From Rickettsiales bacterium (GTDB lineage Bacteria > Pseudomonadota > Alphaproteobacteria > Rickettsiales > RGZB01), in assembly GCA_044356525.1 (NCBI GenBank), contig JBIKVZ010000001.1:416562-480561 (forward strand): DNA of 64,000 bases. The letters are read 5' to 3'. Under the pieces are notes generated by a model that did not search any database, was not told the origin of the DNA, and saw only the letters and a program-made list of their open reading frames with translations. Numbering within the stretch: position 1 is the first letter of the stretch; each line of letters starts with the position of its first letter. Below, piece after piece: positions 16,283 through 41,342 of the stretch. The translations under genes and the position numbers were made by a program.

Positions 16283-16307
16283 ACACAACAAACCAGAGAG
16301 CAAAAAA

Positions 16308-18018: not shown

Positions 18019-18187
18019 GTTGGCTAACGGCACTGTTTTTAATCGGGCGTGAATTATAGTTGAATTATTGATGGTTAGCAAAAACGACAAAATGAGGTAA
18101 AACTGAAAAATGGAGGCGAAACATCACCGGAACATCACCAGATAGAAATTGGTGTTTATAGGAATGTGTAGTAATCCATAAAATTAA

Positions 18188-18495: not shown

Positions 18496-18574
18496 AATTA
18501 TCTAAGTCAATGGCTTACCTAATAACAAAAAACTCTTCTTTTATAGCTAGATTGAACTTCCTGGTTTTTTGGTT

Positions 18575-19420: not shown

Positions 19421-19582
19421 TTGTCTAGCCGCTTATTCGTTGGTGCCTTTCGTGCATAAAACCTGCCGCCCGTGCATAGCCAGTTGATTCATATAAATCC
19501 AGCCAGTTACATGCGCGTGATTAGTTCGCAGTATTACCGCCAATGAATTTAATGCACAACCACTTACTATAGGAACATCACT

Positions 19583-20248
19583 ATGATAAAAAACATTTTT
19601 TTATTATTAATCGCAATGACATTTGCGACATCGCTTTCCAGCACCGCTTTTGCCAATGACAGTGGAAAATGGTACGGAAAACTCTACGGCGGTTCGTCTA
19701 TTTTAGGCGACCAGACGATTAAACAAACCGGTGTTGCCGCTGCGGGTGCTACTGGCAAAAATGACAATGATAGCGGTTTCCTTGCGGGCGGATCTGTTGG
19801 CTACCACTATAACAACAACCTTTCTGCTGAGCTGGCTTGGGATTATATCACGAACGATGCTACCAATAAATTCTCTGACGGCACAAACTTCAATGATGGC
19901 GATTTTTCATCCAGCATTTTCTTCCTGAATGGACGCTATACCTTCGATCCTGTCATGCAAACGAAATTTCGTCCTTATCTGGGTGCTGGTATCGGATACG
20001 TCCAAGAAATCGACATGGACTTAAATGCTGGCGGTGTGGAAACATCCTACAGCAAGAGTGGTGAATTGGCCTATCAGCTCATGGCAGGTGCGTCCTACGC
20101 GATGACTAACAGCATCGATCTAGATGCAGGCGTTCGTTACGTCCGCGTGGATAGCATCAATCTCAAACGTGAAGGTGGCACAGGCGAATTACGAAACGTG
20201 GATTATGATCCTTTGCTCTTCACCATCGGAGCGAGCTACAAGTTTTAG
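19583..20248 (+). CDS. outer-membrane beta-barrel protein (OmpA-like/OmpW-like porin family)
   Basis: Signal peptide MIKNIFLLLIAMTFATSLSSTAFA, alternating-hydrophobicity strands, C-terminal ...GASYKF. Confidence 0.7.
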   Translation: MIKNIFLLLIAMTFATSLSSTAFANDSGKWYGKLYGGSSILGDQTIKQTGVAAAGATGKNDNDSGFLAGGSVGYHYNNNLSAELAWDYITNDATNKFSDGTNFNDGDFSSSIFFLNGRYTFDPVMQTKFRPYLGAGIGYVQEIDMDLNAGGVETSYSKSGELAYQLMAGASYAMTNSIDLDAGVRYVRVDSINLKREGGTGELRNVDYDPLLFTIGASYKF

Positions 20249-20453
20249 ACACGATTTGAATCTTTGGGTGGGAAGTGTTTTGTGCATTGGCTTCCCACCC
20301 AATGGGCGAGCATAAGATTTTGCACAAACTAAAGTTTACGCTCAGCTTATCAGAATAACGCTGGGCACATGGCGCAAGAAAACCGAACCAGAAATACAAT
20401 CGACTGGCTATGTAGTTCATATAGGCACGATTGAAAAATCCTATGGCGATAGA

Positions 20454-20633
20454 ATGATTCTGCGCGATCAGACGGGCAAGCGCATTGGCACCATCGAAGA
20501 AAGTTATGGTGGCAGAAAAACAGTGCGCGATAATCATTACCGAACGCAATATCGCATTGAGCAAGGTTTTGGAGACAGGCTTATTATTCGAGACGCTACA
20601 GGCAAAAGAACTGGCAGTGTTGAATCCAGATAG
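20454..20633 (+). CDS. small repeat-containing ORF (59 aa), possibly a remnant of a longer gene
   Basis: Three repeats of about 20 aa, (S/G)(Y/F)G(D/G)R-x3-RD-x2-GKR-x-G. The same frame is open from 20316 without a start codon. Below the track's length cut-off. Confidence 0.3.
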   Translation: MILRDQTGKRIGTIEESYGGRKTVRDNHYRTQYRIEQGFGDRLIIRDATGKRTGSVESR

Positions 20634-20695
20634 TCACCTGTCAGAATCGGTCGCATGTTCCGATTCTGGATTTTTCACACGCCCGTTATTGTCGG

Positions 20696-22012
20696 ATGAT
20701 CATTGTAAGAGTTGCAGCACTAACCATTAACAAGGAGTGTGTATCCGAGCAACTGATAGGGCTTAAGCAAACGCAGGATTCAATTCAGTCAGATATTTCT
20801 GTATTAGCCGCAGTAACTTCTGGGCAATTAGACGAAGATCTAACAATTTATTCAGCAGTACCATATTTAATGGAGGGGAGCTCCGAAGAGCTAAACGCAG
20901 AAGTTGCTGCGATATTAAACCCTCTTTTGGTGAAGTTTCGTGGCGAAATCTTGGGCAATCTCAAGCCACTTAAAACTAAGTACGATAATGCTCTCGCCTC
21001 TGTAACAGTAGATATCGCTAAACTTGAGCCAGAGCTAAAACCCATTCTTGATAAAATAGCAAAATCTGCCCCTTTGCGAGAAATGGCTGCCGCTGTTAAA
21101 GCTGAGAAAGAAAAGCTCATTACAGTTCTGACGCTAGAAGCCGATATCAGTAAACTGAAGGCAAAGATAGTTTCTTCAGCCGAAGTTATTAATGGATTTA
21201 TTGACAAACGCTTGGAATTGGCTGGCGCAGTAATGCGAGTGATGACAGAGCACCCAGTTTCACGTGGTGACGACCAGCTCAACATTGACATCAAGCCATT
21301 TCTAAAGAGCGCACATATTCAATCCTTGCTTAAGGACCGCATAAAATATCAGAGCAATCTAGAAATTCGTGAGATTGTGCAAACAGCAGAGCCTAAAGAT
21401 ACTGACATCGATGGATATAGGAAGGCAGTAGAGTTGCATGTAAAACAGTCCATTGAAGAGAAGCTAGAATTTAAGGGTGAATATAATCTTTCAGGTGTCT
21501 TGCAAGAGGTCTTAGGTAACGCCTTTTACCTTAATTATGATTTAATGTTACGTGGTGATTCTTTCCGCATAATGTCTCCTGGAAAACGCGCGCTTGCCTT
21601 ATTAAGAATCATTGTTGAACTAGATTCTAGCGAACACCCAATTATTTTAGATCAGCCAGAAGACGATTTAGATAACCGCTCAATTTATGAAGGACTTGCC
21701 ACATACCTAAAATCAAAAAAACAATCTCGTCAGATTATTGTTGTTACTCACAATCCTAATGTCGTTGTCGGTGGTGATAGCGAATATGTTGTTGTTGCTA
21801 ATCAGACTGGTCAAGAGTCAAATCAAGATAATAGAGAATTCAGGTTTGATTATGTATATGGCGGTCTAGAATTGAGCTTCTTTGATGATGCGATACCCTG
21901 GGTTTTGGAACAAAAAGGTATTAAGGAGCATGTTTGCGAAATTCTAGATGGAGGGAAAGACGCTTTCCAGCGACGCGAACAGCTCTACTCCACACTTAAA
22001 GGCAGCACTTAG
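20696..22012 (+). pseudogene. 5'-truncated SMC/ABC-type (TrlF-like) AAA ATPase: coiled-coil plus C-terminal half only
   Basis: ABC signature-like SPGKRALALL, Walker B/D-loop PIILDQPEDDLD and H-loop VVTHNPN are present. No Walker A P-loop occurs anywhere in the ORF or upstream. Confidence 0.55.
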
Positions 22013-22174
22013 AGCGATTGCCTGTCAAAGGGTCAAATTTATGCACCGGTTTATTCGCCTAGAAATGATCTTGAAAGATTTCAATCTGTCCTTTGACACA
22101 AACTCAATCATCTTGACCAACACCGCACTTTTGATTATTGCTCAGAAATCAAACAGCAATAATTGAGGTGTGGT

Positions 22175-22690
22175 ATGCCGCGAGGTGGAAGACGTAAAGG
22201 ATCTGGAAGACCCGCAGGAACCGGTCAGTTTGGAGCTCCGACAAAGTCCATTCGAGTGCCTGTTGGCATGGTCGATAATGTTTTGGAGTATGTGCGGCTG
22301 AAGGGCTTTGCCCTCCCGCTTTATTCCTGCGCGGTATCGGCAGGGTTTCCTTCACCGGCTGATGATCACATGGACGGCAAGCTGGACTTGAACGACCACC
22401 TGATTAAGCACCCCGCCGCCACCTTCTTCGTGAAGGCTACTGGTGAATCAATGATCGGCGCGGGAATTCATGATGGCGATATTCTCATCGTGGATCGCAG
22501 TGTTGAAGCAAAGAACGGTAAAGTGGTAATTGCCGCCATTGATGGTCAGCTCACAGTGAAACGGCTTTCCACCCGACGCGGCAAATCTTGGCTGATGCCT
22601 GAGAACGAAAAATACCAGCCGATTGAGATTAAAGAAGGCAACGATGTTGTCATTTGGGGCGTAGTAACAAACGTCATCCACGCACTGTAG
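22175..22690 (+). CDS. umuD: UmuD-like S24 peptidase (Pol V accessory subunit) with basic N-terminal extension
   Basis: AGFPSPADD, GESM (Ser nucleophile) and VIAAIDGQLTVKRL (Lys). ATG 22175 follows RBS GAGGTG. The N-terminus MPRGGRRKGSGRPAGTG is extra. Confidence 0.85.
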   Translation: MPRGGRRKGSGRPAGTGQFGAPTKSIRVPVGMVDNVLEYVRLKGFALPLYSCAVSAGFPSPADDHMDGKLDLNDHLIKHPAATFFVKATGESMIGAGIHDGDILIVDRSVEAKNGKVVIAAIDGQLTVKRLSTRRGKSWLMPENEKYQPIEIKEGNDVVIWGVVTNVIHAL

Positions 22691-22699
22691 GGGTATCTC

Positions 22700-23968
22700 A
22701 TGCCCATCTTTGCCTTGGTTGATTGCAACAATTTCTACGCCTCCTGCGAGCGCGTTTTCAATCCGAGTCTGGAAGGCAAGCCAATCGTCGTTTTGTCGAA
22801 TAACGATGGCTGCATCATTGCCAGGTCGAATGAAGCCAAAAAGCTCGGCATTCCGATGGGAGGCGCATTTTACTCGCAGAAGGATGTTTGCAGAAAACAC
22901 GGCGTGCATGTGTTCTCGTCAAACTACCAGCTGTATGGCGATATGTCGCAGCGTGTGATGGAAACATTGCGGCACTTTGTGCCGGATATGGAGGTGTATT
23001 CGATAGATGAAGCCTTCCTGTGTTTAGATGGTTTCAGCAGCCGCGATTTGAATGACTACGCGCTAGAAATCAGAAGTGCTGTAAAGCAGTGGACTGGGGT
23101 TCCTGTATCGATCGGCATCGCGCCAACCAAAACACTTGCAAAGGTTGCCAACCACATTGCCAAGAAGCGCACCACTTCAGGTGTTTACAGCCTGCTTACG
23201 CGTGATGAGCAAAATGCCGCCCTTGCCAATCTTGATGTCGAAGAAATATGGGGTATCAGCTCACGCTGGGGCGCACAGCTTAAACAGCGCGGCATTCATA
23301 CTGCCCTACAGCTAAGAGAAGCCAATCCTAAGCTGATACGTCAGCACTTCAGCGTTGTGGGTGAGCGTATCGTAGAAGAACTCCGTGGCAACTCCTGCAT
23401 GCCGCTAGAGATGCACGTTGCGGCTCGAAAGAACATTCTATCGTCCAAGTCTTTTGGGAAGCTGGTTGCTGATCTGCCATCGATTGATGAGGCCTTGGCA
23501 AACTACGCTGCCCGCGCGTGCCTAAAGCTGCGGAAGCAAAAGAGCCGCGCCCAAGGGATTTACGTTTTCGTCCGAACGAATCCTTTTCGAGTTCAGGAGC
23601 CACAGTATCGGAATGGCATGTCCATAGGGTTTTCGGTTCCCACCAGCGACACACGTGCAATCGTTAAAGCCGCAAGCCAGTGTTTGTATCGAATCTATCG
23701 CCCAGGTTTCCGCTACCACAAAACGGGAATTATGCTGCTCGATCTAATTCCAGAATCACACGTGCAGCAAAACCTGTTTTTGAACGTCGATCATAGTCAC
23801 AGCGACAAGCTCATGGTGACGCTGGATAGTCTCAATGAGCGCATGGGTAAAAATACCGTCTTTCTGGCATCGCAGGGCATAAAGCGTGGTTGGCAGATGC
23901 GCTGCGATAATCGATCCCCGCGATATACGACAAATTGGGACGAGTTGGCATTTGCGCGCTGCATTTAG
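22700..23968 (+). CDS. umuC: Y-family DNA polymerase V catalytic subunit
   Basis: MPIFALVDCNNFYASCERVFNP, VVLSNNDGCIIARS, SIDEAFL. Confidence 0.9.
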   Translation: MPIFALVDCNNFYASCERVFNPSLEGKPIVVLSNNDGCIIARSNEAKKLGIPMGGAFYSQKDVCRKHGVHVFSSNYQLYGDMSQRVMETLRHFVPDMEVYSIDEAFLCLDGFSSRDLNDYALEIRSAVKQWTGVPVSIGIAPTKTLAKVANHIAKKRTTSGVYSLLTRDEQNAALANLDVEEIWGISSRWGAQLKQRGIHTALQLREANPKLIRQHFSVVGERIVEELRGNSCMPLEMHVAARKNILSSKSFGKLVADLPSIDEALANYAARACLKLRKQKSRAQGIYVFVRTNPFRVQEPQYRNGMSIGFSVPTSDTRAIVKAASQCLYRIYRPGFRYHKTGIMLLDLIPESHVQQNLFLNVDHSHSDKLMVTLDSLNERMGKNTVFLASQGIKRGWQMRCDNRSPRYTTNWDELAFARCI

Positions 23969-24022
23969 GCGTATGGTTTAGGGGTAACGTACAGTATCAT
24001 CGGCATAAAGATTGTAGGATTT

Positions 24023-24589
24023 ATGAAGGCACTTAATCAAAGAATTACAGGATGGTGTGCAGCAGTAATGGCGCTGATACTGCCCCTATCGCCGTGCCTT
24101 GCAAAAGACGAAAGAAAAATTCCTGTTCCAGTCGAGGTATGGAGAGATGTTTCTACCAAAGAGCTGACGATTGCTGGCATTGGTAAAGCCAAAGACGGTG
24201 ACACCCTCTCCATAGACGGCGTTTTTGATGTGCGCCTGATTGGAATTGATGCGCTGGAAAGAAAGCAGACCTGCTCAATGAATGATGAAGCGTGGAAATG
24301 TGGCGAAGAAGCAAAAGCACTACTTGCAGAACTGGTCGATAATAAGCGGGTCGAATGTGAGAACCGAAAGAAAGAGAAATATGGCCGTTTTCTGTCAGTT
24401 TGTAGAGTTGGCGATATCGTTTTGAATGATGAAATGGTCAGACGCGGCTACGCAGTAGCCTACATGGTTCCTGATTATGTGGATGCCGAAGAAGAAGCAA
24501 AGCTCTCACAAGTGGGCGCATGGGCTGGTGATTTTTTAATTCCTGATGAATGGCGAAAGCGCAAACGCCAGAAAGTACGAAGTTTATGA
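24023..24589 (+). CDS. secreted thermonuclease (SNase-like) family nuclease
   Basis: Signal peptide. DGDTLSIDG..VRLIGIDALE, YGRFLSVCRV and NDEMVRRGYAVAY match the staphylococcal-nuclease fold pattern. Confidence 0.8.
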   Translation: MKALNQRITGWCAAVMALILPLSPCLAKDERKIPVPVEVWRDVSTKELTIAGIGKAKDGDTLSIDGVFDVRLIGIDALERKQTCSMNDEAWKCGEEAKALLAELVDNKRVECENRKKEKYGRFLSVCRVGDIVLNDEMVRRGYAVAYMVPDYVDAEEEAKLSQVGAWAGDFLIPDEWRKRKRQKVRSL

Positions 24590-24909
24590 GCATATCGGTA
24601 AATCAGAAAGAGTTGATTAAGGCACTCCAGCCACCAAAAATGAAGCGCGGGCAGATTCCAAAAATCACTGAGATTCGCGGTTCATTTTCAAGTGACTTGA
24701 TAATCACTGCGCCCGCCCACGAATCCCGCTTACAGGGAAAAGGTACATTCCCTTATCATGTGACCGCCAATGCGCGCATAATACATGAAATGGTGAAGAA
24801 GCTACCGAAGTCAGAAAATGTTGAGTTAGATACACTAGAAAATCAGATTCTATTTCGTATCGGTAGCTTTGTTTTGAAGTTTAATGCGGTTGAAATTCGC
24901 AGCCTGTAA
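24586..24909 (+). CDS. hypothetical protein (107 aa)
   Basis: ATGA overlap with the nuclease stop suggests translational coupling. No recognisable motif. Confidence 0.45.
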   Translation: MSISVNQKELIKALQPPKMKRGQIPKITEIRGSFSSDLIITAPAHESRLQGKGTFPYHVTANARIIHEMVKKLPKSENVELDTLENQILFRIGSFVLKFNAVEIRSL

Positions 24910-25621
24910 AACGAAAAAAAGCCCCGAACCTTTCGGCTCGGGGCGATTGCTAGGGAGGGATAATAACTTCTGATCTGGCTGGATTGTTGGGCATCAACGC
25001 GTCATTGTTGAGCTTGGTGTTAAGCGTGACAATGCCGATGCAAAAGACGTGGTAGCGGATGAAATGGAAGCTGCGTGAGAGAGACCGAAGCCGGATGGCC
25101 GAATGAGGCTGTCCGGCTTTTTTTAGTGATTCGGTTATTCCAAAGAGGCTGCGCAAAATCCTGCAAGTGCGAGCAATTACAATGCCTTGCTGTGATTGTG
25201 TCAGAATTGGAAAATTCCTACCAATCCCACTTTTGAGGGTGTTTTTGACCAAAAGTAGGGTCATTTAGGGGTAAAATCATGTCCCAGTGATGTACCAACA
25301 GGTACCGAAATTCGGAAATAAGGCAAAAAAAGGTGGGCGGAAAGCAATCACGCTTCCCGCCCGAGCTGCACTGGGAGGATAACCGGCCAATAAAAAACCC
25401 AGCGTGGGGATGCCAGCTGGGTGGGGTACGTAATTTTCCGATTATGCTAAGATCATAGCTAACGGCGTGACGCTATGCAAGTGTTTTTATTGTAGTTCAA
25501 TATGTTAGCAAGTTTGCAAACGGTGACAATCCTGCAATTCACGTCATCAACGGGCATAACTATCTGGGTTTCAAAGCATATTATCCTTGCATTTTGAACA
25601 TTTAATCATCAGAATACTAGA

Positions 25622-26782
25622 ATGACATTGCCCCGCCACACACTCACTCAGCAGATTGAACATGCGCTTTCGCGCAATCCCGTGGTGTCGCTTATTGGCC
25701 CTCGTCAGTGTGGCAAGACAACACTCGCACGCGCCATTGGAAAATCTCAGGACGCAACCTTCTTTGATCTTGAACACCCTGTTGATGCCGAGCGGCTAAA
25801 AAATCCGCTCACCGCGCTCGAACATTTGCGAGGATTAGTGGTTATCGACGAAGCGCAGTTGGAGCCAGCCTTATTTCCCGTGCTGCGCGTGCTGGCTGAC
25901 CGCACACCACTTCCTGCACGGTTCTTACTTCTGGGCAGTGCTTCTCCTGATTTGGCGAGCAACATTTCAGAATCACTGGCTGGCAGGATTCACTTCGTGA
26001 ATATGTCTGGGTTCAACCTGCATGAAGTGGGTGCTCCGCATTGGCGAGAGCTTTGGCATCGCGGCGGTTTTCCTCGCTCATATCTGGCAGAATCAGATGC
26101 AGATAGCTTCAAATGGCGTGAGGATTTTATCGCGACATTTTTGGAGCGCGACCTGCGCCGCCTTGGAGTCATGGTGGCACCAGAATCGCTACGTCGGCTA
26201 TGGATGATGATCGCGCATTATCATGGGCAAGTGGCAAAGCTCTCTGATATTGGGCGGTCGCTGGGAGAAAACCACACCACGATCCGCCGTCATCTGGATA
26301 TTCTGGAAGGTGCATTGGTGCTCCGCCAGCTTCAGCCTTGGCATGAGAATGTTGGCAAACGGCAAGTCAAATCGCCGAAAGTATATGTGCGCGATACGGG
26401 TATTCTGCACACGCTACTTGGTTTGGGAAATGCCGCCACGATTGAATCACACCCAAAACTTGGTGCAAGCTGGGAAGGGTTCATCACCGAGCGAATCATA
26501 GAGATGTTCGGTGATCGTAATTGTATGTTCTGGGCAACCCAAGCGGGAGCGGAGCTTGACCTGCTGGTATTGCATCAGGGCAAACGCTACGGCTTTGAAA
26601 TTAAATACGCCGATGCGCCAAAAACCACCAAGTCCATGCGCGAGGCAATTAAAACGCTTGAACTCACCAAGCTGTTTATTGCGTATCCAGGCAGCAAAAG
26701 TTATGTGGTGGATGAACATATTGAAGCAGTTGGCATTGTGGATTTAGAAGCAAAGCTGAAAAACCTCATTGCATCATCATAA
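25622..26782 (+). CDS. AAA-family ATPase with DUF4143-type C-terminal domain
   Basis: Walker A GPRQCGKTTLA, Walker B VVIDEAQ. The C-terminal EIKYADAPK segment is typical of the AAA_14/DUF4143 family. Confidence 0.8.
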   Translation: MTLPRHTLTQQIEHALSRNPVVSLIGPRQCGKTTLARAIGKSQDATFFDLEHPVDAERLKNPLTALEHLRGLVVIDEAQLEPALFPVLRVLADRTPLPARFLLLGSASPDLASNISESLAGRIHFVNMSGFNLHEVGAPHWRELWHRGGFPRSYLAESDADSFKWREDFIATFLERDLRRLGVMVAPESLRRLWMMIAHYHGQVAKLSDIGRSLGENHTTIRRHLDILEGALVLRQLQPWHENVGKRQVKSPKVYVRDTGILHTLLGLGNAATIESHPKLGASWEGFITERIIEMFGDRNCMFWATQAGAELDLLVLHQGKRYGFEIKYADAPKTTKSMREAIKTLELTKLFIAYPGSKSYVVDEHIEAVGIVDLEAKLKNLIASS

Positions 26783-27359
26783 ATCTGTCTTCAGCGTTGG
26801 CGCTGAGACCTGTTACGCTTACGTTGCTGCTCTTTGTACATGGCTTCGTAGATGCTGGATAGATCGTCCAGTACGAGGCTGATGAGCTTCTTGCCTGAGC
26901 GCCTTGGCCACTGCGTCCATTTTTCCAGCGCGTCCACCGCGATGCCCTCTATGCACACCTGATAGGCATCCAATCAATGTCCAGCGGAACAGCCAAGATT
27001 GTTGATATTCGTGATGCCAAAAAGAATGAGAAATGAAACATCACCGAAACATCACCGGAACATCACGAGGGATAGAAATCGATAGTATTTGATAGCAAGC
27101 AGTAGTGATAGGGCAAGCCAAAGAATTTACGAAAAAGCCTTTATATGTAGTCACTTGGATGGTTCTATAGGTGTCTGTAGGAATGTGTGAAAAAATCATT
27201 TTGTTCGTCTTAAAAGGACACAAAATCCTTTTCGTCTAAGGTGGATTGTGTTTGTAAATGAAGGCGTTATAAAAGGAGGGCAAGGCGGATTTTGTTCCGA
27301 AACATCACCGGAACATCACCGAAAAAAGAGTGGTGTAACAGTTTGATTTTAATAGATAA

Positions 27360-27658
27360 GCTCGCGTGGCGGAATTGGTAGACGCAACGGACTTAAGACA
27401 AAAGGATTGAGTGCTCTGGTGGAAATGCCAGAAGTAGAACTGCTCAAATTCGGGGAAGCCTGTAACATGGTAATCCCGAGCCAAGCCTGAGAGAAATTTC
27501 AGGAAGGTGTAGAGACTAGACGGGCAGCACCTAAAACCGAAAGGTCATGGTGAAGGGATAGTCCAGACCCCAAACGGGTGGCGGCGAAAGCCGTGGTAGG
27601 TAAGAAAATCCGTCGGGAGTTAAATCCTGTACCGGTTCGACTCCGGTCGCGAGCACCA
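27360..27658 (+). tRNA. tRNA-Leu(UAA) interrupted by a group I intron (copy 2)
   Basis: Exon 1 is 27360-27394, identical to copy 1. Exon 2 is 27605-27658, with a different variable arm (CGGGAGTTAAATCCTGT) and a T loop TTCGACT. CCA is encoded. Confidence 0.85.
27395..27604 (+). ncRNA. group I intron, 210 nt (diverged paralog of 18223-18443)
   Basis: Same conserved core (TCAAATTCGGGGAA, CCGAGCCAAGCC, GAAGGTGTAGAGACTAGACGGGCAGCACCTAAAACC). Indels and substitutions are confined to peripheral stem-loops. Confidence 0.85.
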
Positions 27659-27714
27659 ACTTGTTTTGAAATTTAAGTGTTGATTTTCTAAATAAGAGAT
27701 GTATAAACACCTCT

Positions 27715-27826
27715 GTCTTAAGGGAGTAACCTGCTCTCCAGTTTGGAGAATGGACGCGTCAACATACTTGCCACAGTGCTGGCATGGCGTGTCCCACCAG
27801 TAAATCGGTGCGGTGAGACTTACGAC
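27715..27826 (+). ncRNA. yybP-ykoY-like manganese riboswitch (tentative)
   Basis: AAGGGAGTAAC..., ...CGTCAACATAC... and ...GGTGAGACTTAC resemble the conserved GGGGAGUAG / UUGACAUAC / AGAGACC blocks. The closing helix is GTCTTAAG/CTTACGAC. It lies directly upstream of a UPF0016 gene, a classic regulon member. Confidence 0.55.
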
Positions 27827-27903
27827 GAAGTGGTTCGCTCAGGGTTGGGCGGAAACACTTTGTCGTATGGTCATCAACCATCGCCCAACCCACTGGTGTT
27901 TAT

Positions 27904-28464
27904 GTGCAAGTACTTCTTTCATCCGCTTCCCTCGTTGCTGTTGCCGAAATGGGCGATAAAACACAGCTGCTTGCGCTCATGCTTGCAGCGCATTATGGCC
28001 GCGCCATACCCATTGTTCTGGGCATTACGCTCGCCACCACACTCAATCACCTTGCTTCCGCTTGGCTTGGTCAGACCATTGGCGTGAATTTCAACTCCCC
28101 CCAGTTTTCACTGGCAGTTGGTGTTCTCTTCATCGGTATCGGGCTGTGGTTGCTTAAGCCAGACACGCAAGATTCCATCAGCAATAAGTTCCTGCGTTTT
28201 AGCCCATTTGTAGCTAGTTTCATCGCCTTTTTTCTGGCAGAGATTGGTGACAAAACACAGCTCGCCACCATTGCGCTTGCCAGCGAATACCAAGCCCTGC
28301 TGTGGGTAACGCTTGGCACCACGATAGGTATGCTCATCACCAATATTCCTGCCGTTTTTCTCGGCGAGGCATTCATCGCCAAAATACCCATGAAGCTGGT
28401 TCGCAATCTCGCATCGCTTGCCTTCATCGGGTTTGGCTTTTATCAACTCATTCAATCATTTTAA
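27904..28464 (+). CDS. UPF0016 (GDT1/TMEM165/MneA) family cation (Mn2+/Ca2+) transporter
   Basis: Two E-x-GDKTQ motifs (VAEMGDKTQLLA, LAEIGDKTQLAT) in a 6-TM protein. GTG start. Confidence 0.85.
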   Translation: MQVLLSSASLVAVAEMGDKTQLLALMLAAHYGRAIPIVLGITLATTLNHLASAWLGQTIGVNFNSPQFSLAVGVLFIGIGLWLLKPDTQDSISNKFLRFSPFVASFIAFFLAEIGDKTQLATIALASEYQALLWVTLGTTIGMLITNIPAVFLGEAFIAKIPMKLVRNLASLAFIGFGFYQLIQSF

Positions 28465-28478
28465 GTAAGGAGACTTCC

Positions 28479-29465
28479 GTGAATTATTCGTTACATCAAA
28501 CCATTCAATCTGAGGCACCTTGCAAGCTGTGCGGTGGCCATGAACTGCAAGTGATCGGTACGCAGGGAAGGCATTTCCAGAAACTCACCACCACCATCTG
28601 TACGGGTTGCGGTCTGATTCATAGCTACCCCATCCCAACCAAAGAGGAACTAGACGAATATTACAGCAAGCAATATCGCAGCGATTACAAGGGTGCATAC
28701 ACGCCCCAGCGCAAGCATATCCTTCGTTATTCGCGTGGGGCGATGCACCGCATTAAGCAGCTGCTTCAGTTTGCAAGCAAAGGCCAGAAGCTGCTGGATG
28801 TAGGCAGTGGTAGTGGTGAGTTTGTGTATATCGCATCGCTGTCTGGCTTTGATGTGCATGGGCTCGAGCCTCACGAAGGCTATTCAGAATATACCCGCAA
28901 AACCTTTGGCGTCCCCATCATCACCGCGCCGCTTGAAAAGGCAGATATTGCGCCTGAAAGCTATGACGTCATTACACTCAACCATGTGCTCGAGCACCTT
29001 CATTACCCGCTAACTTCACTTGGTTATTTAAACCGCTGGCTCAAAATGGGCGGGCTGCTCGCAGTCGATGTGCCCAATATAGCGTCAACACATCATTCCC
29101 CCATCAATCGCTTCCACTACGCACATTTTTATAATTTCAACCATGATACGCTCAAAGCTATGCTTGAGAAATCAGGTTTCACAGTGGAAGCACATCCTGA
29201 CTTTAGTGGCACCACGCTATTCGCCAGAAAGACAGGCGCTCCTGATCCTGAACGTATCATCGCAATGCCAGAGAATTATCAGCGCTTGCTGCATCTGATG
29301 TCGAAAGAAGTGGCAACCGAAAACTACCGTAAGAAAAAACCACTCAAGCGGTTCTTAAGCAAATGCCGACGTTATCCACTGGAGTTCATCGAAGCGATGC
29401 TATTTTGGAATCCCCGTCGCATTGTCAAAAGAGAATTCAAAAAGGCAAATGGTAGTTTTATGTAG
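28479..29465 (+). CDS. class I SAM-dependent methyltransferase with N-terminal CxxC..CxxC zinc ribbon
   Basis: Motif I LLDVGSGSGEF, then ITLNHVLEHL. GTG 28479 follows RBS TAAGGAGA. The track start 28302 would overlap the transporter gene. Confidence 0.75.
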   Translation: MNYSLHQTIQSEAPCKLCGGHELQVIGTQGRHFQKLTTTICTGCGLIHSYPIPTKEELDEYYSKQYRSDYKGAYTPQRKHILRYSRGAMHRIKQLLQFASKGQKLLDVGSGSGEFVYIASLSGFDVHGLEPHEGYSEYTRKTFGVPIITAPLEKADIAPESYDVITLNHVLEHLHYPLTSLGYLNRWLKMGGLLAVDVPNIASTHHSPINRFHYAHFYNFNHDTLKAMLEKSGFTVEAHPDFSGTTLFARKTGAPDPERIIAMPENYQRLLHLMSKEVATENYRKKKPLKRFLSKCRRYPLEFIEAMLFWNPRRIVKREFKKANGSFM

Positions 29466-29496
29466 TGGTTTGGATAAGGTAAGTGGATGTATGAGC

Positions 29497-29700
29497 CACT
29501 TTTCTCAGGGACACTGGCGGGACACTAGAGGGTAAATAATGAGCACAAATGGCAATAGGTGGCAATCAAGCGAACCTTCTGTAACCCGCTGTGGCGTTGT
29601 TGTGTATCGTTATGGATTGTTGTGGCGTGTTTTATACAAAGGACTTAAAATCCCTCGAAGGTTAAACTTCGTGCCGGTTCGATTCCGGCCGCGAGCACCA
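29497..29700 (+). repeat. Repeat A copy 1: conserved ~145-bp arm plus 3' half of tRNA-Leu(UAA)
   Basis: Tandem GGGACACT x2, then GGGTAAATAATGAGCACAAATGGCAATAGGTGG..., and from 29641 GGACTTAAAATCCCTCGAAGGTTAAACTTCGTGCCGGTTCGATTCCGGCCGCGAGCACCA. Confidence 0.85.
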
Positions 29701-29923
29701 CGTCCTTCGTTAACCAAAAATTAAACATCTTCTGCTATATTCTACTTATAAAACAGGTGGGTGTGGATGATTTTTGATTGGTCGCGCTCGGGGGTGGGTG
29801 AAACGAGGTTGTTGTAGACCACTAAGAGGCCACATGGAAAGAAAAGATGCAATACAGTCCGTAAGGAAAGCCATCTTGCAGGCATAGAGGGAAAATTCTC
29901 TCGCCATTTCGGCCATTGATCTG

Positions 29924-31036
29924 GTGGATAAAGCGCTGTGGGAGGAATTCCGCATGAAGGCCCAGTTCGGGTATGAGCAAACTTTTCGTATCGTTCCTGA
30001 AGAGCCTGGCCGTGGGAAGAAAGGGCCGCTGGACGCTAGGAATATCGAAAGGGAATTTCTGGGGCTGGAGGCAAGTGGAAGGCCGCTTCCGAAGCAAGGA
30101 AAAGAATTCCGCCCCATCATTGTGAAATTCCACTACGACAACGAACCGCAGAAGTTTGAAGCAGTAACAAACGTCGGCTCGGCCAAGCAGGTGGCGCGGT
30201 GGGTGGTGATGTTCAGAGAGCTCGCCACTGCGCTGGCACCGGAATATCCTTCCACAAAAACAGCCTCTTTCCAAGGCTCCCATGTGTTGGACCTTACTTC
30301 GCCGTTTGGTGGGCCTATGCGGAAATATACGAATACTAACGGCATCCATGTGAACTTCAGCATCCTCTTCAATGGTGAAAACGGATTTGAGAACCGCGCC
30401 TTACAGATGCATACAATCCATGGCGTGAAGACCTTGTCAGAAGAAACAACGCTTATGGTAGCGCTCTATCCCAATGACTACGAGCGGTATAAAATCTCGG
30501 GCACACACAAGCCAAACTATATCGGGGTAACGGAAGGGAAGGATGATAAGTCCCTTAGGGTGGTAGACGAAGGAAGGTTGAGGCCGCACAAGCGCCGCGT
30601 GGAGGACAGAGTTCCGAGCTCCAGCGCTAATCCGTATTACGCCAGTCTCAGAGTGCTGGTGGGGATGTATCTGGGCCTGGGGGAAAACGTAGCGCTGGAA
30701 CAGGACGGCGAGAAACCGAAGCTAGAAGTTGCTCCTGCTGAATACGGCTATCTTGAAAAGGCCGCCAAATCCGAGGGAGGATTGCCAGCATATCTGAAAA
30801 GTTTCTTTGTTGCCCCTAAAGAAGTGCCGGTAAAAGAAGAAGCCCCCCTCCATGTCATTCCAAAAGATATCGGGGCGGCGATAGAAGAATTCAGGGAAGG
30901 CAAAATACTACGCGAATCCCTTAATGAACTCAGCATGAAATACGGCGAGGGTAGTCCGGTTGGCGACCTTGTTCATGCTCAGGTGTTGCAACGCGCCAGA
31001 GATAATGCGCACGAAGGGCCTACCAAAAGCATGTAG
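29924..31036 (+). CDS. divergent glutamine synthetase-like (GS catalytic domain) protein
   Basis: NGIHVNFSILF (compare GS GxGxHxNFS) and RVEDRVPSSSANPYYASLRVLVGMYLGL (compare GS R-x-E-x-R-x-P-x3-NPYL). An in-frame ATG at 29834 is separated from the ORF by a TAG at 29885-29887. Confidence 0.55.
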   Translation: MDKALWEEFRMKAQFGYEQTFRIVPEEPGRGKKGPLDARNIEREFLGLEASGRPLPKQGKEFRPIIVKFHYDNEPQKFEAVTNVGSAKQVARWVVMFRELATALAPEYPSTKTASFQGSHVLDLTSPFGGPMRKYTNTNGIHVNFSILFNGENGFENRALQMHTIHGVKTLSEETTLMVALYPNDYERYKISGTHKPNYIGVTEGKDDKSLRVVDEGRLRPHKRRVEDRVPSSSANPYYASLRVLVGMYLGLGENVALEQDGEKPKLEVAPAEYGYLEKAAKSEGGLPAYLKSFFVAPKEVPVKEEAPLHVIPKDIGAAIEEFREGKILRESLNELSMKYGEGSPVGDLVHAQVLQRARDNAHEGPTKSM

Positions 31037-31056
31037 AGACTGTAAGCGAAAAAGCC

Positions 31057-31259
31057 CCATTTTCTAGGGACACTACAGGGACACTAGAGGGTAAATAATG
31101 AGGACAAAGGGCAATAGGTGGTAATCAAGCGAGCCTTCTGTAATCCGCCGTGGCTTTGTTAAGTAGCGTTATAGATTGTTGTGGCGTGTTTTATGCAGAG
31201 GACTTAAAATCCCTCGAAGGTTAAACTTCGTGCCGGTTCGATTCCGGCCGCGAGCACCA
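31057..31259 (+). repeat. Repeat A copy 2 (arm plus 3' half of tRNA-Leu)
   Basis: Aligns with copy 1 along its full length with scattered substitutions. The tRNA 3' half (31200-31259) is identical to copy 1. Confidence 0.85.
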
Positions 31260-31385
31260 TAAGCCCAATTCGATTCTCTTGGTTTCAATTAAGCACAGAC
31301 GCAAAAAGAAAGCGGCCCTTTATAGAACGACAGATAAAATGGGATTTCTCGGTTGGCCTATTATTAATAGGTAGTGATAATTAAA

Positions 31386-31976
31386 TTACCGGTCTCTACT
31401 CGGTTTTTTTGGCGTATCATCTGGGCCATCTGAGCCGTATTTTCCTCTTAGAGCATCTTCCCTATCGCGGTAATTACGGTGGACATTGTCAACCATACCA
31501 TCAAAACGTTTGAGCGCCTCACGATCAACATAATCGGGGAGCGACTTATCTTTATGATTGCTATATTCATATACATATCCATGTGCCTCTGGTGCATTTT
31601 GCATCCAACTATTATCGGGGTTAAAATCACGAGCTCTTGGAAAATTTAGTTGTTTCCTGGAAAGTCCATCATTATTGCCCAAATTATCCAAGTAATTATC
31701 AATTTGCTTTCTTTCGACCGCTGTTTCTACGCTGTGTTTATAAACATCTTTTATCATCTCGCCAGCCTTACGCAGGAGCGTAAGGTTCTCAATGTGTTCT
31801 TCAACACTAGCGGGTGTTGCGAATTGGATTTTCACGGTTCCTCGACCAGGAGATTCTACAAGTGCTGTTCCCATGTCAAATCCAGCGTGGCCCAGTACTT
31901 TGTTCCAGTGCTCAACGCGTATAACAGAGTCTGCTCTATCGCGCTCTTCCCACATTTTATTGGCCCAACCGTTCAT
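31386..31976 (-). CDS. hypothetical protein (196 aa)
   Basis: Track ORF, third in a tightly packed three-gene minus-strand set. No motif recognised. Confidence 0.5.
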   Translation of the reverse strand: MNGWANKMWEERDRADSVIRVEHWNKVLGHAGFDMGTALVESPGRGTVKIQFATPASVEEHIENLTLLRKAGEMIKDVYKHSVETAVERKQIDNYLDNLGNNDGLSRKQLNFPRARDFNPDNSWMQNAPEAHGYVYEYSNHKDKSLPDYVDREALKRFDGMVDNVHRNYRDREDALRGKYGSDGPDDTPKKPSRDR

Positions 31977-31985
31977 TCTTCTCGC

Positions 31986-32306
31986 CTATGCCGAGGATGC
32001 ATTACCAGAATTAGAAGGTTTATAATCGCGTTCAGAAGCAACAGAAACACTCAGCGGCGATTTTTTGAAATCGAAAGTGGAATCAGGATACACATCGGCC
32101 AGTTTTGGTCTGGAAAAAAAGAGAGCATCTGATGTTCTCCTTTTTTCTTCTTCAGGAACAGCGGCTTCAAAATCTAGCAGCCTTCTGAACTCGCCGATAT
32201 AGGCCCGCTCCAGAATCCTGTTTCTGTTCTTAGACAAAGATTCACCGGGCTGAATATACTCAGCAAGAATGTTATTAGCTTCTGAAGAAGAGTCTGATTT
32301 TGCCAT
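31986..32306 (-). CDS. hypothetical protein (106 aa)
   Basis: Track ORF, 9-bp gap to the next gene. No motif recognised. Confidence 0.45.
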   Translation of the reverse strand: MAKSDSSSEANNILAEYIQPGESLSKNRNRILERAYIGEFRRLLDFEAAVPEEEKRRTSDALFFSRPKLADVYPDSTFDFKKSPLSVSVASERDYKPSNSGNASSA

Positions 32307-32360
32307 GATAATTCAAAAGTAAGTTTCTCTAGGTATGGAGCTTGGTTGTGGCTTTGTTAA

Positions 32361-33119
32361 TTAGTAGCGCTCAGTCACACGCTGTGTTGATGCAGTAACA
32401 GCCAGCGCTTTGCCCGCCTCGACCTCTTTTGAACGTTCTTCAATGAATTTTTGTAAGGGGGTTTCATTGCCCGCCCAGTTGTCTATCAAAGGTTCTGCTT
32501 TGGTAGCCTCAACGGCCCGTTCTAGGCCTTTTATCATAGTGGCACTCCATTCATCACCTTTCTTAACAAGTGGTGTTACGGTAGAATCACCATCCAGTAT
32601 GCCTCGCGCAAGATTTGCAGCAGCGGATACTGCAGGCTTAAGTTTAGTGGCGAGCTCTCTTGCCGCATCCACGTCTGTTTTACTTAACTGAACCACAAGC
32701 ATGACCATGTTCTGTGCAATGTTTGCCGCTGCAGCGACACCCTCTGCACGGGTTGGATTTTCAGCGGCCATATTAATACCGCTATTACCCCAGTTTGCTT
32801 TTAGCCAATAGATCGGTTCTTCCTCGGGCGCCCCTGTTTTCGCTAGTCTTTGCAGATCCAATACAGCTGCTTCTGCTTTTTGCGTCACCTGCTCGGAAAG
32901 TGATTTATCTACTTCTTCGGGCGAAATCGGAGCACCCGTAAGCTGATTAATTGCCTTTGGATCTAGCGCAAGCAGCACCTTGCCAGCATAGCCCTTCTGG
33001 CCCGATGTCTTCATTTCTTCAAGCCTATTATCTAAACGTAACTGGTCTTGCTCGGAAAGGATGCCCGATTCTACCATTATATGTCCAAGTGGCTTAACAG
33101 TCTCCAGACTCATCTTCAT
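32361..33119 (-). CDS. hypothetical protein (252 aa), Ala-rich helical
   Basis: Track ORF with RBS AGGAGG before the ATG. No motif recognised. Confidence 0.5.
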   Translation of the reverse strand: MKMSLETVKPLGHIMVESGILSEQDQLRLDNRLEEMKTSGQKGYAGKVLLALDPKAINQLTGAPISPEEVDKSLSEQVTQKAEAAVLDLQRLAKTGAPEEEPIYWLKANWGNSGINMAAENPTRAEGVAAAANIAQNMVMLVVQLSKTDVDAARELATKLKPAVSAAANLARGILDGDSTVTPLVKKGDEWSATMIKGLERAVEATKAEPLIDNWAGNETPLQKFIEERSKEVEAGKALAVTASTQRVTERY

Positions 33120-33378
33120 AGATTGCCTCCTAATTCAGGCTATACCCCGCCTTATTATTCTATGCGCAAGTAGTTAAAGAATGGTTAAAAATTAGCGCCT
33201 ATCGCATCTATTGTTATTTTTGAGGGCAATAGTGGGGGCGGCAGGTATGCCGCTGGCACGATAAGAAGATTAACCTACGCCAAGCGATGCAATCATCGGC
33301 CTGAGAATGATGGGCGCACCTTGTTCAATAGAAGGGGACTGCTTGAAGAACCCTAAGAGCTAATTGTCATTTATTTAG

Positions 33379-33529
33379 TTTTATTCTCAGGGACACTACA
33401 GGGACACTAGAGGGTAAATAATGAGCACAAATGGCAATAGGTGGTAATCAAGCGAGCCTTCTGTAACCCGCTGTGGCTTTGTTCTGTAGCGTTATGGATT
33501 GTTGTGGCGTGTTTTATGCAGAGGACTTA
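33379..33529 (+). repeat. Repeat A copy 3 (arm only; ends inside the core at GGACTTA)
   Basis: Same GGGACACT x2 and downstream arm. Homology stops at 33529 and no tRNA 3' half follows. Confidence 0.8.
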
Positions 33530-33762
33530 TGCGGTAGTCCAGCGCCACCCTAAAACTATCAGGTGAGAAATCAGGTATGGGGGCATCTCTTTAATAAAAG
33601 ATTTGAATTATTATTATTTAGTACCCTGGGCGCAGAGATGCAAAATATTTTTACCCACAATCTGATTTTAGTTAATAAATATTCTGTCTAGTTGAGGGGT
33701 GGTATATGAAGTCTTTGAATGACGAACTTCAACTTCATCTGAAGTAAGTTCAGATTCTTGTT

Positions 33763-34293
33763 GTGGGCCCTAGCGCAGAGACAAATAAACTAATTAAAGA
33801 AATTTTTTTAGTACTTGGCTTTAAGCATATTTACACCGCTACTGATCCGGCGGAGGCCGTAAGTATGCTGAGAGAGGTTCGCATCAGCATTATCATCACC
33901 GACCATACTCTCAAAATCTCCCCTACTTCTGATAGTATTTCTATTGATTCTTCTGGCTTACAGATTAAAGGTGTTGAATTGGTTAGGAGCATCCGCTTAT
34001 CGAAAAATTCTCCAAGTCCCTATGTAGCTATCTTGATGGTGGCTTCCAGCAACCTCTCTGGCGAAGAAGCTACCACAATGCGAGATAGTGGTGTGAATGG
34101 CCTGCTGCTACGCCCGCTGGAAGCAGAACAGCTCTGCAAAAAGGTGCGTGACATCATCGAAAGTCCCCGAATCTTTATTACGTCCAAAGAGTACGCTGGG
34201 CCGTGTCGAAGAATCCATAAAACTAAGTGGACGGCAGCAAAAGAGCGGCGGAAAAAACAAATCCAGGTGATTTCTTCCAGAGCCAAAGCATAA
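33763..34293 (+). CDS. receiver (CheY-like) domain protein, degenerate; probably disrupted at its 5' end
   Basis: FKHIYTATDPAEAVSMLREVRISIIITDHTL and ILMVASS fit a REC fold. The beta-1 strand VQILVV lies upstream of the track start and after an in-frame TAA (33745-33747). That stop follows ATG 33706, which has RBS GAGGGGTGG. Confidence 0.55.
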   Translation: MGPSAETNKLIKEIFLVLGFKHIYTATDPAEAVSMLREVRISIIITDHTLKISPTSDSISIDSSGLQIKGVELVRSIRLSKNSPSPYVAILMVASSNLSGEEATTMRDSGVNGLLLRPLEAEQLCKKVRDIIESPRIFITSKEYAGPCRRIHKTKWTAAKERRKKQIQVISSRAKA

Positions 34294-34315
34294 ATTTTTA
34301 CACAAGGAGAGCTTT

Positions 34316-34846
34316 ATGGCGAATGATAACGATATTAAATCTATTGCCGAACCCTATGCTTTGGCGGCGGATTTGACGCTAAAAGAGCTGCTGGGCCCTA
34401 AAGAGCGCCTGGATAAAATCTTTTCAGAAGAAAATATTTCGCGCAGCCAGGCGCTTATTGACGAAGCAAAAAGCAGCTTCTTCGAATCCGCAAGGCCACT
34501 GGTGACAAGCATTTGTAATGCCGCCAAAGTAAATGTGGATATGAAAATTGGTCAGGCACAGCTCAAAACCATCTCTCAAGAGGCGCAGTCGCTTCGGCAG
34601 CAAGCTGACACGCTCAGTTTTCCTTTTGTCGTAAGTGTTTGCTCAAATATTGAGCTTGTGGCGCGGACTGCTGGGAAGTTGGATTTTGATTATACAAAGC
34701 TCATTCGCGAACTTACAAACCTACTCACACTAGCCTTTCAGATGAAAATTATTGATGAAGGTGGTGGAGTGGGTCATAGCGTTATCGAAGCCCTCAAAGT
34801 TCTATCAAATACAATCAAAGGTATAGCAGTTGGCGCCAGCGCCTAA
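34316..34846 (+). CDS. hypothetical helical protein (possibly HPt-like four-helix bundle, no conserved His seen)
   Basis: 176-aa track ORF with RBS AAGGAGAG, directly downstream of the receiver gene. Confidence 0.45.
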   Translation: MANDNDIKSIAEPYALAADLTLKELLGPKERLDKIFSEENISRSQALIDEAKSSFFESARPLVTSICNAAKVNVDMKIGQAQLKTISQEAQSLRQQADTLSFPFVVSVCSNIELVARTAGKLDFDYTKLIRELTNLLTLAFQMKIIDEGGGVGHSVIEALKVLSNTIKGIAVGASA

Positions 34847-35042
34847 GCGGGGCATCCATCGGAATACGCTAGAAACCATAGTCCAGGGGTTTTCCCTTCT
34901 ACCGCAGCTCTTCTGTGATAACAAAGAGCTCGTATTCAATTTTAGGGCCGAGATACGGCCTTTTTTAAAAGCCTCTATGTCCCAATTGGGATTAAAATTC
35001 CTATCCTTATAGGAATTTATCATCGTGGCTAGTGCCTGGAAA

Positions 35043-35062
35043 GTTGGCTGAGACTAGGACTC
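35043..35062. repeat. distal att repeat of the tRNA-Gln island
   Basis: GTTGGCTGAGACTAGGACTC versus GTTGGCTGGGAGACTAGGACTCGAACC at 44075-44101 (3' end of tRNA-Gln). Confidence 0.7.
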
Positions 35063-35168
35063 ACATTTAAACATTAAGTATCTGTTATATAATAATAGTT
35101 AGTAATACACTTTCCTGATGTGCCCCCAAATATGCCCCCAGCCCACTCAGTTGGGGACTTGTCAGGCC

Positions 35169-37799: not shown

Positions 37800-37812
37800 T
37801 TTACTTCACCAC

Positions 37813-41328: not shown

Positions 41329-41342
41329 TCTACCATCCCGCC

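Follow-up and report, generated by a model that had tools for sequence, protein, structure and literature searches.

Tyrosine integrases commonly integrate into tRNA genes (Islander, PMC4383910), and in the tRNA-dependent lysogeny of actinophages the core is short, integration does not reconstruct the tRNA, and lysogeny depends on a phage-borne tRNA of matching isotype (Guerrero-Bustamante & Hatfull 2024, mBio, PMC10865867). According to PMC13011429, tRNA introns without homing endonucleases are generally held to spread little by horizontal transfer, and disrupted tRNA genes have been put forward as resistant to integration (Randau & Soll 2008, as summarised in PMC4390854). Here we analyse a 64-kb stretch of DNA from a Rickettsiales bacterium (64,000 nucleotides, hereafter the window, with positions counted from its first letter), in which an intronless tRNA-Leu(UAA) gene is split into two halves and two complete tRNA-Leu(UAA) genes, each interrupted by a group I intron, lie between them. 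The host is an uncultured alphaproteobacterium, and the best named relatives of its IMPDH, at about 74%, come from MAGs recorded as Alphaproteobacteria or Rickettsiales bacterium. We consider it likely that the second of these genes, copy 2, is the replacement tRNA-Leu(UAA) of the second of two elements in tandem and is split by its intron at the crossover loop.

Intron-bearing copies within a split tRNA-Leu(UAA) gene

Copy 2 (27360-27658, plus strand) consists of exon 1 (27360-27394), a group I intron of 210 nt (27395-27604) and exon 2 (27605-27658), and copy 1 (18188-18495, plus strand) of exon 1 (18188-18222), a group I intron of 221 nt (18223-18443) and exon 2 (18444-18495). The Rfam family Intron_gpI (RF00028), with a gathering score of 50, matches copy 2 at 27385-27580 with 55.8 bits over model positions 1-253 of 253 and copy 1 at 18213-18417 with 57.6 bits. 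With the splice cut placed after GGACTT and, following the terminal G of the intron, before AAAATCC, the intron is positioned between U34 and A35, and the spliced products of 89 nt (copy 2) and 87 nt (copy 1) are recognised by ARAGORN as canonical class II tRNA-Leu(UAA) with an encoded CCA. In its default mode ARAGORN reports no tRNA-Leu anywhere in the window; when introns are allowed, both intron-bearing genes are detected. An alternative ARAGORN call of Phe(aaa) for copy 2 was ruled out by homology with copy 1.

At the splice site of copy 2, exon 1 ends in ...GGACUU (U-1), the intron ends in ...GGUAAG (omega G) and exon 2 starts with AAAAUCC. As read from the sequence, ACUU is able to pair with GAGU 14 nt downstream to form P1, with a U.G wobble at U-1. 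Copy 2 shows the three features of the Leu.3Ug class, namely U-1, omega G and insertion between anticodon positions 34 and 35. Both introns are small, of IC3 type and without an open reading frame (ORF), and are predicted to be self-splicing; their core resembles that of the Azoarcus and cyanobacterial IC3 introns.

The two copies are identical in exon 1 (35/35 positions), 84.7% identical in the introns, where four indel blocks fall in the P1 loop, the P5 region, P6 and P9, and 85.5% identical in exon 2, where the differences lie in the variable arm and one T-loop base; overall identity is 86.5%. A preliminary description of this DNA had reported two complete intron-bearing tRNA-Leu(UAA) genes within the split gene, the first of them close to the broken 5' half, with identical first exons, introns differing by indels and second exons differing in the variable arm. 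All of this is borne out by the Rfam introns and spliced cloverleaves of both copies, by the alignment and by the start of copy 1, which lies 171 bp after the end of the 5' half. The P6 hairpin carries register-shifting changes between the copies and keeps a 7-bp stem with a GAAA loop in both, and an alignment of eight sequences of the sub-lineage (both copies and six relatives) contains compensatory double changes in 20 of 58 predicted intron pairs. Owing to the kept P6 stem and the compensatory changes, both copies have the appearance of maintained ribozymes rather than of decaying relics.

Lambda-type tyrosine integrases make two cuts spaced by 6-8 bp; the overlap between the cuts has to match and is flanked by half-sites. 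For one integrase class the anticodon loop reportedly provides the overlap, and the arms of the stem provide the half-sites. In the window, the native 5' half of the intronless tRNA-Leu(UAA), which forms the host side of attL, lies at 17975-18016 (plus strand) and ends with the 13-bp core GGACTTAAAATCC (18004-18016), which includes the crossover loop CTTAAAA (18007-18013). The host side of attR, at 31200-31259 (plus strand), consists of the core and the native 3' half (31213-31259). The core has exactly three exact matches in the window (at 18004, 29641 and 31200), against 0.03 expected. Unrelated, non-tRNA sequence directly follows the core of the 5' half; the cores at 29641 and 31200 are each followed by an identical 47-nt tRNA 3' part, and the 5' half joined to either of these (29654-29700 or 31213-31259) folds as tRNA-Leu(UAA) in ARAGORN. 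The rejoined halves have the anticodon stem AGGGA/TCCCT and the intron copies ACGGA/TCCGT, a compensatory pair difference.

The site is found empty in a close relative (L151, GCA_964467255.1), which is syntenic with the window over 11.4 kb at about 90% nucleotide identity and has, after the same 482-aa gene, a tRNA-Leu(UAA) that is intact and intronless. Since the L151 match to 31200-31262 continues 3 nt past ACCA and the match to 29637-29700 ends at ACCA, we take 31213-31259 to be the native 3' half and 29654-29700 to come from a small element. GC content is 0.40-0.51 at 18-44 kb versus mostly 0.50-0.57 in the flanks. These data bear on the possibility that the intron genes are the native chromosomal ones and that elements introduced the intronless halves as att fragments, a reading that could draw on the fact that the intron-bearing form is the sole tRNA-Leu(UAA) form at many alphaproteobacterial loci. 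It is refuted by the syntenic site of L151, which is intact and intronless and matches the halves including their flanks, and the intron genes moreover lie within the low-GC insert between the halves and have an anticodon stem different from theirs; we give this reading practically no weight.

With attB inside the tRNA gene, the 13-bp core (7 nt at minimum) is too short for the tRNA to be rebuilt, and at 18016, where a canonical island could show an intact tRNA regenerated at its junction, no tRNA sequence follows attL. The junction of a comparative tandem locus (L098, described below) indicates that the obligatory shared segment is the 7-nt anticodon loop CTTAAAA. The preliminary description had placed the intron within a 13-bp recombination core; the intron does split that core, but by the L098 junction the shared segment is only 7 nt long.

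In the explanation that we favour, crossover by a tyrosine recombinase would take place in the anticodon loop (CTTAAAA, 7 nt) of the intronless host tRNA-Leu(UAA). A dead 5' half would remain at attL, with a hairpin and arm-type repeats behind it, and no 3' half borne on attP would rebuild the gene. Each element would instead bring a complete tRNA-Leu(UAA) gene, located immediately inward of its left arm, and mature tRNA would arise only after splicing of the IC3-type intron between U34 and A35, so that the loop would be restored only in RNA. Because the intron follows the third loop base, the carried gene would have no contiguous overlap, and its half-sites would lie more than 200 bp apart in DNA. 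Such an intron-split gene should not act as attB for the element's own integrase, which would amount to self-deletion, or for incoming relatives. The array in the window would then comprise two intron-tRNA elements, a small element of canonical type and an orphan arm, with integrase genes lost or never present.

The same arrangement in other genomes

In order to find comparable loci, we surveyed one genome per species with a 26-nt word from the intron core, which returned at least 120 intron loci in Alphaproteobacteria, Acidobacteriota, Binatia, Bdellovibrionota-like metagenome-assembled genomes (MAGs) and other groups; the figures given for this survey are among the matches listed. At nearly all of these loci the intron lies in the anticodon loop of a tRNA-Leu. 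The closest to the window module among the matches listed is found in an alphaproteobacterial MAG (L036), which aligns with 17975-18500 at 78% identity over 536 nt, including the broken 5' half, the core, the palindrome, AACATCACCGCAACATCACC and the intron tRNA, and has flanks and cargo unrelated to the window beyond this aligned module. At 39 of the 120 listed loci, the gene directly preceding the intron gene is co-oriented with it and encodes a tyrosine recombinase of about 400 aa; these loci represent a larger sister family, whose integrase differs from the P4-type enzyme of the window's sub-type described below. Of the 23 loci whose upstream sequence is long enough, 22 also have, 50-140 nt ahead of the integrase, a broken 5' half of the native tRNA-Leu that ends in ...CTTAAAA. 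About 10 more loci have no integrase and resemble the window in that 50-250 nt separate the broken half from the intron gene downstream. Altogether, at least 40 loci across phyla, besides those of the window and L036, show a broken 5' half, usually a tyrosine integrase, and then an intron-bearing tRNA-Leu. In L098 two elements, each with its own intron tRNA, stand in tandem and are joined at ...CCTTAAAAGTCC..., which contains CTTAAAA. Native 3' halves were not found in the 8-kb genome slices, the elements being longer than the slices.

A metagenome scan with exon 1 of the window yielded a complete 8.7-kb element of the window's sub-type (L139). Its left part consists, in order, of the native 5' half, a left arm with two copies of TAGGTACC, the intron tRNA and cargo; its right part consists of a P4-type integrase (minus strand), a right arm with two copies of AGGTACC, ACTTAAAAT and the native 3' half. 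The integrase, at the right end of the element, scores 64 bits for Phage_integrase and 60 bits for Arm-DNA-bind_3. Another metagenome contig (L141) joins the window's left arm and copy 1 module to different cargo, and two loci (L138, L140) have an integrase of a sister family upstream of the same tRNA type. A 25-mer from the right arm had no match in metagenome contigs, and neither a right-arm 23-mer nor the intron core had any in 2.9 million viral contigs. The left-arm motif AACATCACCGTAACATCAC has five viral matches (L127-L131, gut-phage contigs of IMG/VR) at prophage ends beside integrases, one of them just after a tyrosine integrase gene; they were rejected as relatives, since chance predicts about as many matches to an 18-base pattern and the sequences show no other relationship.

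To lessen the bias of selecting loci by their intron, we also picked eight members of the sister family by integrase protein. Six of the eight show a broken half, the integrase and an intron-bearing tRNA-Leu(UAA), one is canonical and one carries an intronless replacement. The canonical case, Micavibrio aeruginosavorus ARL-13, has an intact intronless tRNA-Leu, the integrase, a repeat of the 3' half 10 kb away and no extra tRNA. Its integrase is supported by Pfam (29.5 bits) and passes the cut-offs for Phage_integrase and the SAM-like domain; the sister family comprises 7339 clusters at E <= 1e-20 among 8000 scored, whose named sources say integrase, and a sequence search of the PDB with a family member gave no significant match. 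An element-encoded tyrosine integrase is present in L134, L135, L146-L150 and L139. The preliminary description had raised the question whether an intron-bearing tRNA-Leu always accompanies the left arm of related elements. Such a gene is present in six of the eight integrase-sampled loci and in L036, L139 and L141; L149, an acidobacterial locus discussed below, has an intronless replacement.

It is highly probable that the elements carry a substitute for the tRNA-Leu gene they break, as the preliminary description had proposed. The carried anticodon matches the broken one, being UAA in most loci and CAA with CAA in L047, L084 and L061, and in the window both carried Leu(UAA) copies match the isotype of the broken gene. 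This anticodon covariation, the empty site in L151, the module shared with L036 and the at least 40 loci of the same layout all argue for replacement. The carried tRNA has the acceptor stem GCGGGCG in 88 of 112 cases, and the native halves are host-specific. The carried copies are predicted to be expressed, spliced, able to complement the broken gene and essential.

A related gene was also observed on plasmids: an intron-bearing tRNA-Leu(UAA) of about 73% identity occurs on an Escherichia coli plasmid (L144 3826-4292; CP142529.1, 27166-27632) and in NZ_CP023816.1 (L154), where it adjoins a module of an AAA-ATPase, aac(3)-IId and IS26. It is preceded by two copies of TAGGTGCA, 11 bp apart, and by the core-like GCGGACTTAAAA about 160 nt upstream, and resembles a fragment from the left end of such an element that moves together with the resistance module. 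In PLSDB this copy occurs on 1275 plasmids, from Escherichia, Klebsiella, Salmonella and Acinetobacter, and among 5426 complete E. coli genomes 646 contain it. No tRNA is annotated at this place in RefSeq, where a hypothetical protein is the sole overlapping feature, and our search found no paper on this copy. Separately, the metagenome contig L143 (7634-7950, Ga0247843_1000001) holds an intronless tRNA-Leu(UAA) whose 5' half is identical to exon 1 of the elements, together with a 17-nt repeat of the tRNA 3' end (TCCGGCCGCGAGCACCA) about 200 nt downstream, which may be a scar left by another small element, of a different kind, with the tRNA 3' end as its target.

Anatomy of the proposed tandem array and its surroundings

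The array begins directly after the native 5' half with the left (P') arm of a first element, E1a (18017-18187, plus strand), which contains a terminator-like hairpin (18017-18033) followed by a T run and two copies of AACATCACC, 11 bp apart, at 18120-18139. This arm is 78% conserved with L036 and identical in the metagenome contig L141. Copy 1 and the cargo of E1a (18496-27036) follow, the latter encoding, by Pfam, a LytTR regulator, an outer membrane beta-barrel protein (OMP), an SMC-like ATPase, UmuD/UmuC, an SNase and a DUF4143 ATPase. Candidate P-arm sites at the right end of E1a (27037-27066, plus strand) comprise a cluster of three repeats 11 bp apart, AACATCAC(C), which are occurrences of the AACATCACC motif. 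A candidate inter-element junction (27209-27228, plus strand) consists of CTTAAAA (27209-27215) and the degenerate core GGACACAAAATCC (27216-27228), which has two mismatches; counting both strands, about 1.4 such two-mismatch cores are to be expected in each window. The P' arm of a second element, E1b (27301-27320, plus strand), has two copies of AACATCACC 11 bp apart, 40 bp upstream of copy 2, and the cargo of E1b (27659-29493, plus strand) encodes a GDT1-family cation transporter (27904-28464) and a methyltransferase (to 29465).

Three right (P) arms of about 150 bp, 90-95% identical to each other and ending at 29640, 31199 and 33520, each contain GGGACACT twice, 11 bp apart. The first (29494-29640, plus strand, repeats at 29508-29526) is followed by the core (29641-29653) and tRNA-Leu 3' half (29654-29700) of a small element, E2, a canonical-type attP remnant (29641-29700, plus strand). 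The body of E2 (29701-31199, plus strand) contains a glutamine-synthetase-like ORF (29924-31036) and the second right arm (31053-31199, repeats at 31067-31085); because it carries its own 3' half, E2 (29654-31199) belongs to the classical restoring type. The third right arm (33376-33527, plus strand) is 95% identical to the second and ends in GGACTTA, followed by unrelated sequence without a tRNA 3' half; it may be an orphan, a secondary-site junction or a truncated one. The idea that a truncated intron starts at this junction (33521 onward), as would result from integration into an intron copy, was rejected, the alignment scoring 30 against 27.7 +/- 4.4 for shuffled sequences.

The most likely division of this array is into two intron-tRNA elements in tandem, E1a from 18017 to about 27215 with copy 1 and E1b from about 27216 to 29640 with copy 2. 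Given its place between two repeat clusters, 27209-27228 is suggestive of a worn E1a/E1b junction, and the array as a whole is probably an integrase-less, partly decayed tandem accretion. If copy 2 had instead arisen from copy 1 by simple segmental duplication inside a single element, without an integration history of its own, the identity of exon 1 and of long stretches of the intron core would be accounted for. The copies are, however, 13.5% apart, with four indel blocks and compensatory changes in P6, and the right arms only 5-10%; apart from the arm repeats their flanks are unrelated, and copy 2 has its own repeat pair and a degenerate core nearby. L036 is nearer to copy 1 (85.5%) than to copy 2 (80.3%), and in L141 the copy 1 module is joined to different cargo. 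A duplication is thus very improbable, and the earlier suggestion of separate elements rather than a recent duplication is upheld by the divergence, the separate arm repeats, the degenerate core near copy 2 and the parallel of the L098 tandem.

Some further features of the array and its neighbourhood deserve mention. A palindrome or terminator-like hairpin stands directly after the core in three left arms of the sub-type (window 18017-18033; L036 2086-2105; L139, oriented, about 1212-1235) and could serve as a transcription stop for the orphan 5' half or as a recombinase site. Proteins with a glutamine synthetase catalytic domain occur twice, at 29924-31036 as the sole cargo of the 1.5-kb E2 and at 44674-46014 in the backbone just beyond tRNA-Met. 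Upstream of the split gene, an RTX-repeat gene (15068-16282; compared stretch 15000-16317) is absent from the otherwise syntenic L151, and downstream of the tRNA-Leu gene the window and L151 have only RTX-repeat similarity in common. An ARAGORN call of tRNA-Ala(AGC) at 17026-17098, within the 482-aa ORF (16439-17887), has no Rfam tRNA support and is probably a false positive.

A second low-GC island (33600-44150) adjoins the array. On its minus strand, abutting tRNA-Gln(CUG) and tRNA-Met, lies a P4-type integrase (42684-43949); the island also encodes another tyrosine recombinase (39755-40843), which has an HTH_17 neighbour, and, at 35169-39720, a pair of type III restriction-modification genes. 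No direct repeat of tRNA-Gln marking its far end was found. The P4-type integrase beside tRNA-Gln is the only match of the L139 integrase in the window, a weak one at 22.7% identity. It was considered as a possible cognate enzyme of the array, and its upstream region aligns poorly with the right arms.

The possible role of the intron and comparison with known systems

A number of observations weigh against the explanation favoured here. By Pfam, there is no recombinase between the tRNA halves and no tyrosine integrase at 18017-33527, and tblastn with six sister-family integrases and the L139 integrase found no homologue in the array. The proposed E1a/E1b junction is degenerate, 27030-27225 has no significant similarity to the three right arms (z = 0.8-2.6), and the left and right arms of the window carry different repeat motifs (AACATCACC versus GGGACACT), whereas L139 has one motif on both. 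Most comparative loci were chosen by the intron core itself, so that the association between intron and element is biased, the unbiased sample amounting to n=8, and 46 of the 120 listed intron loci have neither integrase nor broken half. Finally, the count of tRNA-Leu(UAA) genes covers the 64-kb window, no sigma-70-like promoter was called upstream of copy 2 in a scan with the E. coli consensus on an alphaproteobacterial host, and one locus (L149) carries an intronless replacement.

The gene count and the promoter result would also fit silent intron copies, with another tRNA-Leu(UAA) gene or isoacceptor wobble serving the cell. Besides the mismatch between the promoter consensus and the host, the perfect cloverleaves and the full intron cores above the Rfam gathering score in both copies speak against such relics, as do the intron helices kept by compensatory changes and the conservation of the module across genomes; we regard silent relics as improbable.

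With the replacement function taken as given, it can be asked what the intron contributes. That it protects the carried copy from integration is plausible because it bisects the 7-nt crossover loop, although we place this slightly below an even chance. All broken halves seen are intronless, which fits such immunity, and the intron invariably lies at the centre of the 7-nt identity segment. The anticodon-stem strand of the carried exon 1 equals the native one in about half of the loci that have an integrase, so that an intronless carried copy would be a perfect attB inside the element. If true, immunity would let an element carry a copy of its own target uncut by its own integrase.

Alternatively, the elements would replace the gene and the intron would be a selfish passenger in the tRNA gene that an ancestral element captured, retained since that gene is needed and without any part in shielding it from integration. 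The idea of intron immunity has a natural control in L149 (9836-11332, Acidobacteriia MAG JAIQFN010000008.1), in which a broken Leu(CAA) half and an integrase are followed by an intronless tRNA-Leu(CAA). The loop of this carried tRNA, CTCAAAATC, is the same as the core and the target loop, and its anticodon stem differs from that of the target, so that L149 may escape through its diverged stem. Since L149 manages with an intronless replacement, the intron is dispensable for this life-style, and phages with tRNA-dependent lysogeny likewise carry intronless tRNAs (PMC10865867). The 46 listed loci without element signatures indicate that an intron-bearing tRNA-Leu also occurs as an apparently ordinary gene, and cyanobacterial and plastid tRNA-Leu introns sit at the same position with no reported link to elements. 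On the other side stand the native stem strand in about half of the integrase-bearing loci, set against the differing stem of L149, the intron form in six of the eight integrase-sampled elements and the invariable position of the intron at the centre of the identity segment. On this evidence we hold the passenger alternative to be rather unlikely.

More tentatively still than immunity itself, we raise the possibility that group I introns lacking an endonuclease spread among bacterial tRNA-Leu genes mainly through gene replacement driven by integrases. In this scenario an island would destroy the resident intronless gene and leave its own intron-bearing copy as the sole functional one; the intron would be kept since it abolishes attB, guarding against self-recombination and closing the site to competitors; and after decay of the island the genome would appear simply to have an intron in its tRNA-Leu gene. 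The patchy distribution of the tRNA-Leu(UAA) intron has been seen as a matter of ancient inheritance versus lateral transfer, and a widespread integrase-linked module would offer a testable lateral mechanism, and with it a definite role or vehicle for the group I intron of bacterial tRNA genes. For annotation, it matters that such intron genes are missed by default tRNA finders and by RefSeq, among them the related copy that hundreds of resistance plasmids carry. A link to integrases or islands is not mentioned in catalogues of bacterial tRNA introns, one of which concludes that horizontal transfer seems to be limited, and our literature search, which covered open-access sources so that an earlier description is possible, found no paper tying group I intron tRNA genes to integrases, broken halves or islands.

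The tandem accretion of att-bounded, mostly integrase-less segments that share arms is known from the CIMEs of Streptococcus (ICESt1/3), which resemble the array in this respect and differ from it in target, recombinase family and the replacement-tRNA feature. The intron itself agrees with the Leu.3Ug class (Williams 2020, bioRxiv 10.1101/2020.01.27.920355) in its insertion at CUU/AAAA, U-1, omega G, small size and absence of an ORF. The idea of Randau and Soll, as summarised in the source cited above, shares with our explanation that an interrupted tRNA gene is a lost integration target; it concerns archaeal host genes with protein-spliced introns or split genes and a defence of the host, whereas here the gene would be the element's and the intron a ribozyme. 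Canonical tRNA-gene islands (Islander/TIGER; PMC4383910) likewise have a tyrosine integrase, a crossover in the anticodon loop and a displaced 3' fragment at the far end. In these, however, the target is regenerated from the 3' half borne on attP and no extra tRNA is carried, whereas the intron-tRNA elements leave a dead 5' half; the Micavibrio aeruginosavorus locus has the canonical layout with a sister-family integrase, and E2 of the window likewise carries a 3' half.

The closest described system is tRNA-dependent lysogeny, with which the present elements share a tyrosine-integrase attB in the anticodon-loop region, with a core of about 10 bp there and 7-13 bp here, and arm-type repeats flanking the core. 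In the secondary sites of phage Fionnbharth only CTT is conserved (PMC10865867), and the orphan junction of the window keeps only GGACTTA. By Pfam, the array has no phage structural or lysis genes, and it falls outside tRNA-dependent lysogeny on two counts, being neither a phage nor equipped with an integrase. Complementation and lethality were established experimentally in tRNA-dependent lysogeny, whereas here the replacement function is predicted from sequence comparison. The former is a property of temperate actinobacteriophages with intronless tRNAs; the elements described here are non-phage islands, with cargo for defence, UmuDC and transport, in Alphaproteobacteria, Acidobacteriota, Binatia and other hosts, so that tRNA-dependent integration, described in 2024 from actinophages only, would extend to non-phage islands in several phyla. 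Only here is the carried tRNA split by a group I intron exactly in the core, and it is this intron, together with the breadth of phyla, that is new relative to tRNA-dependent lysogeny.

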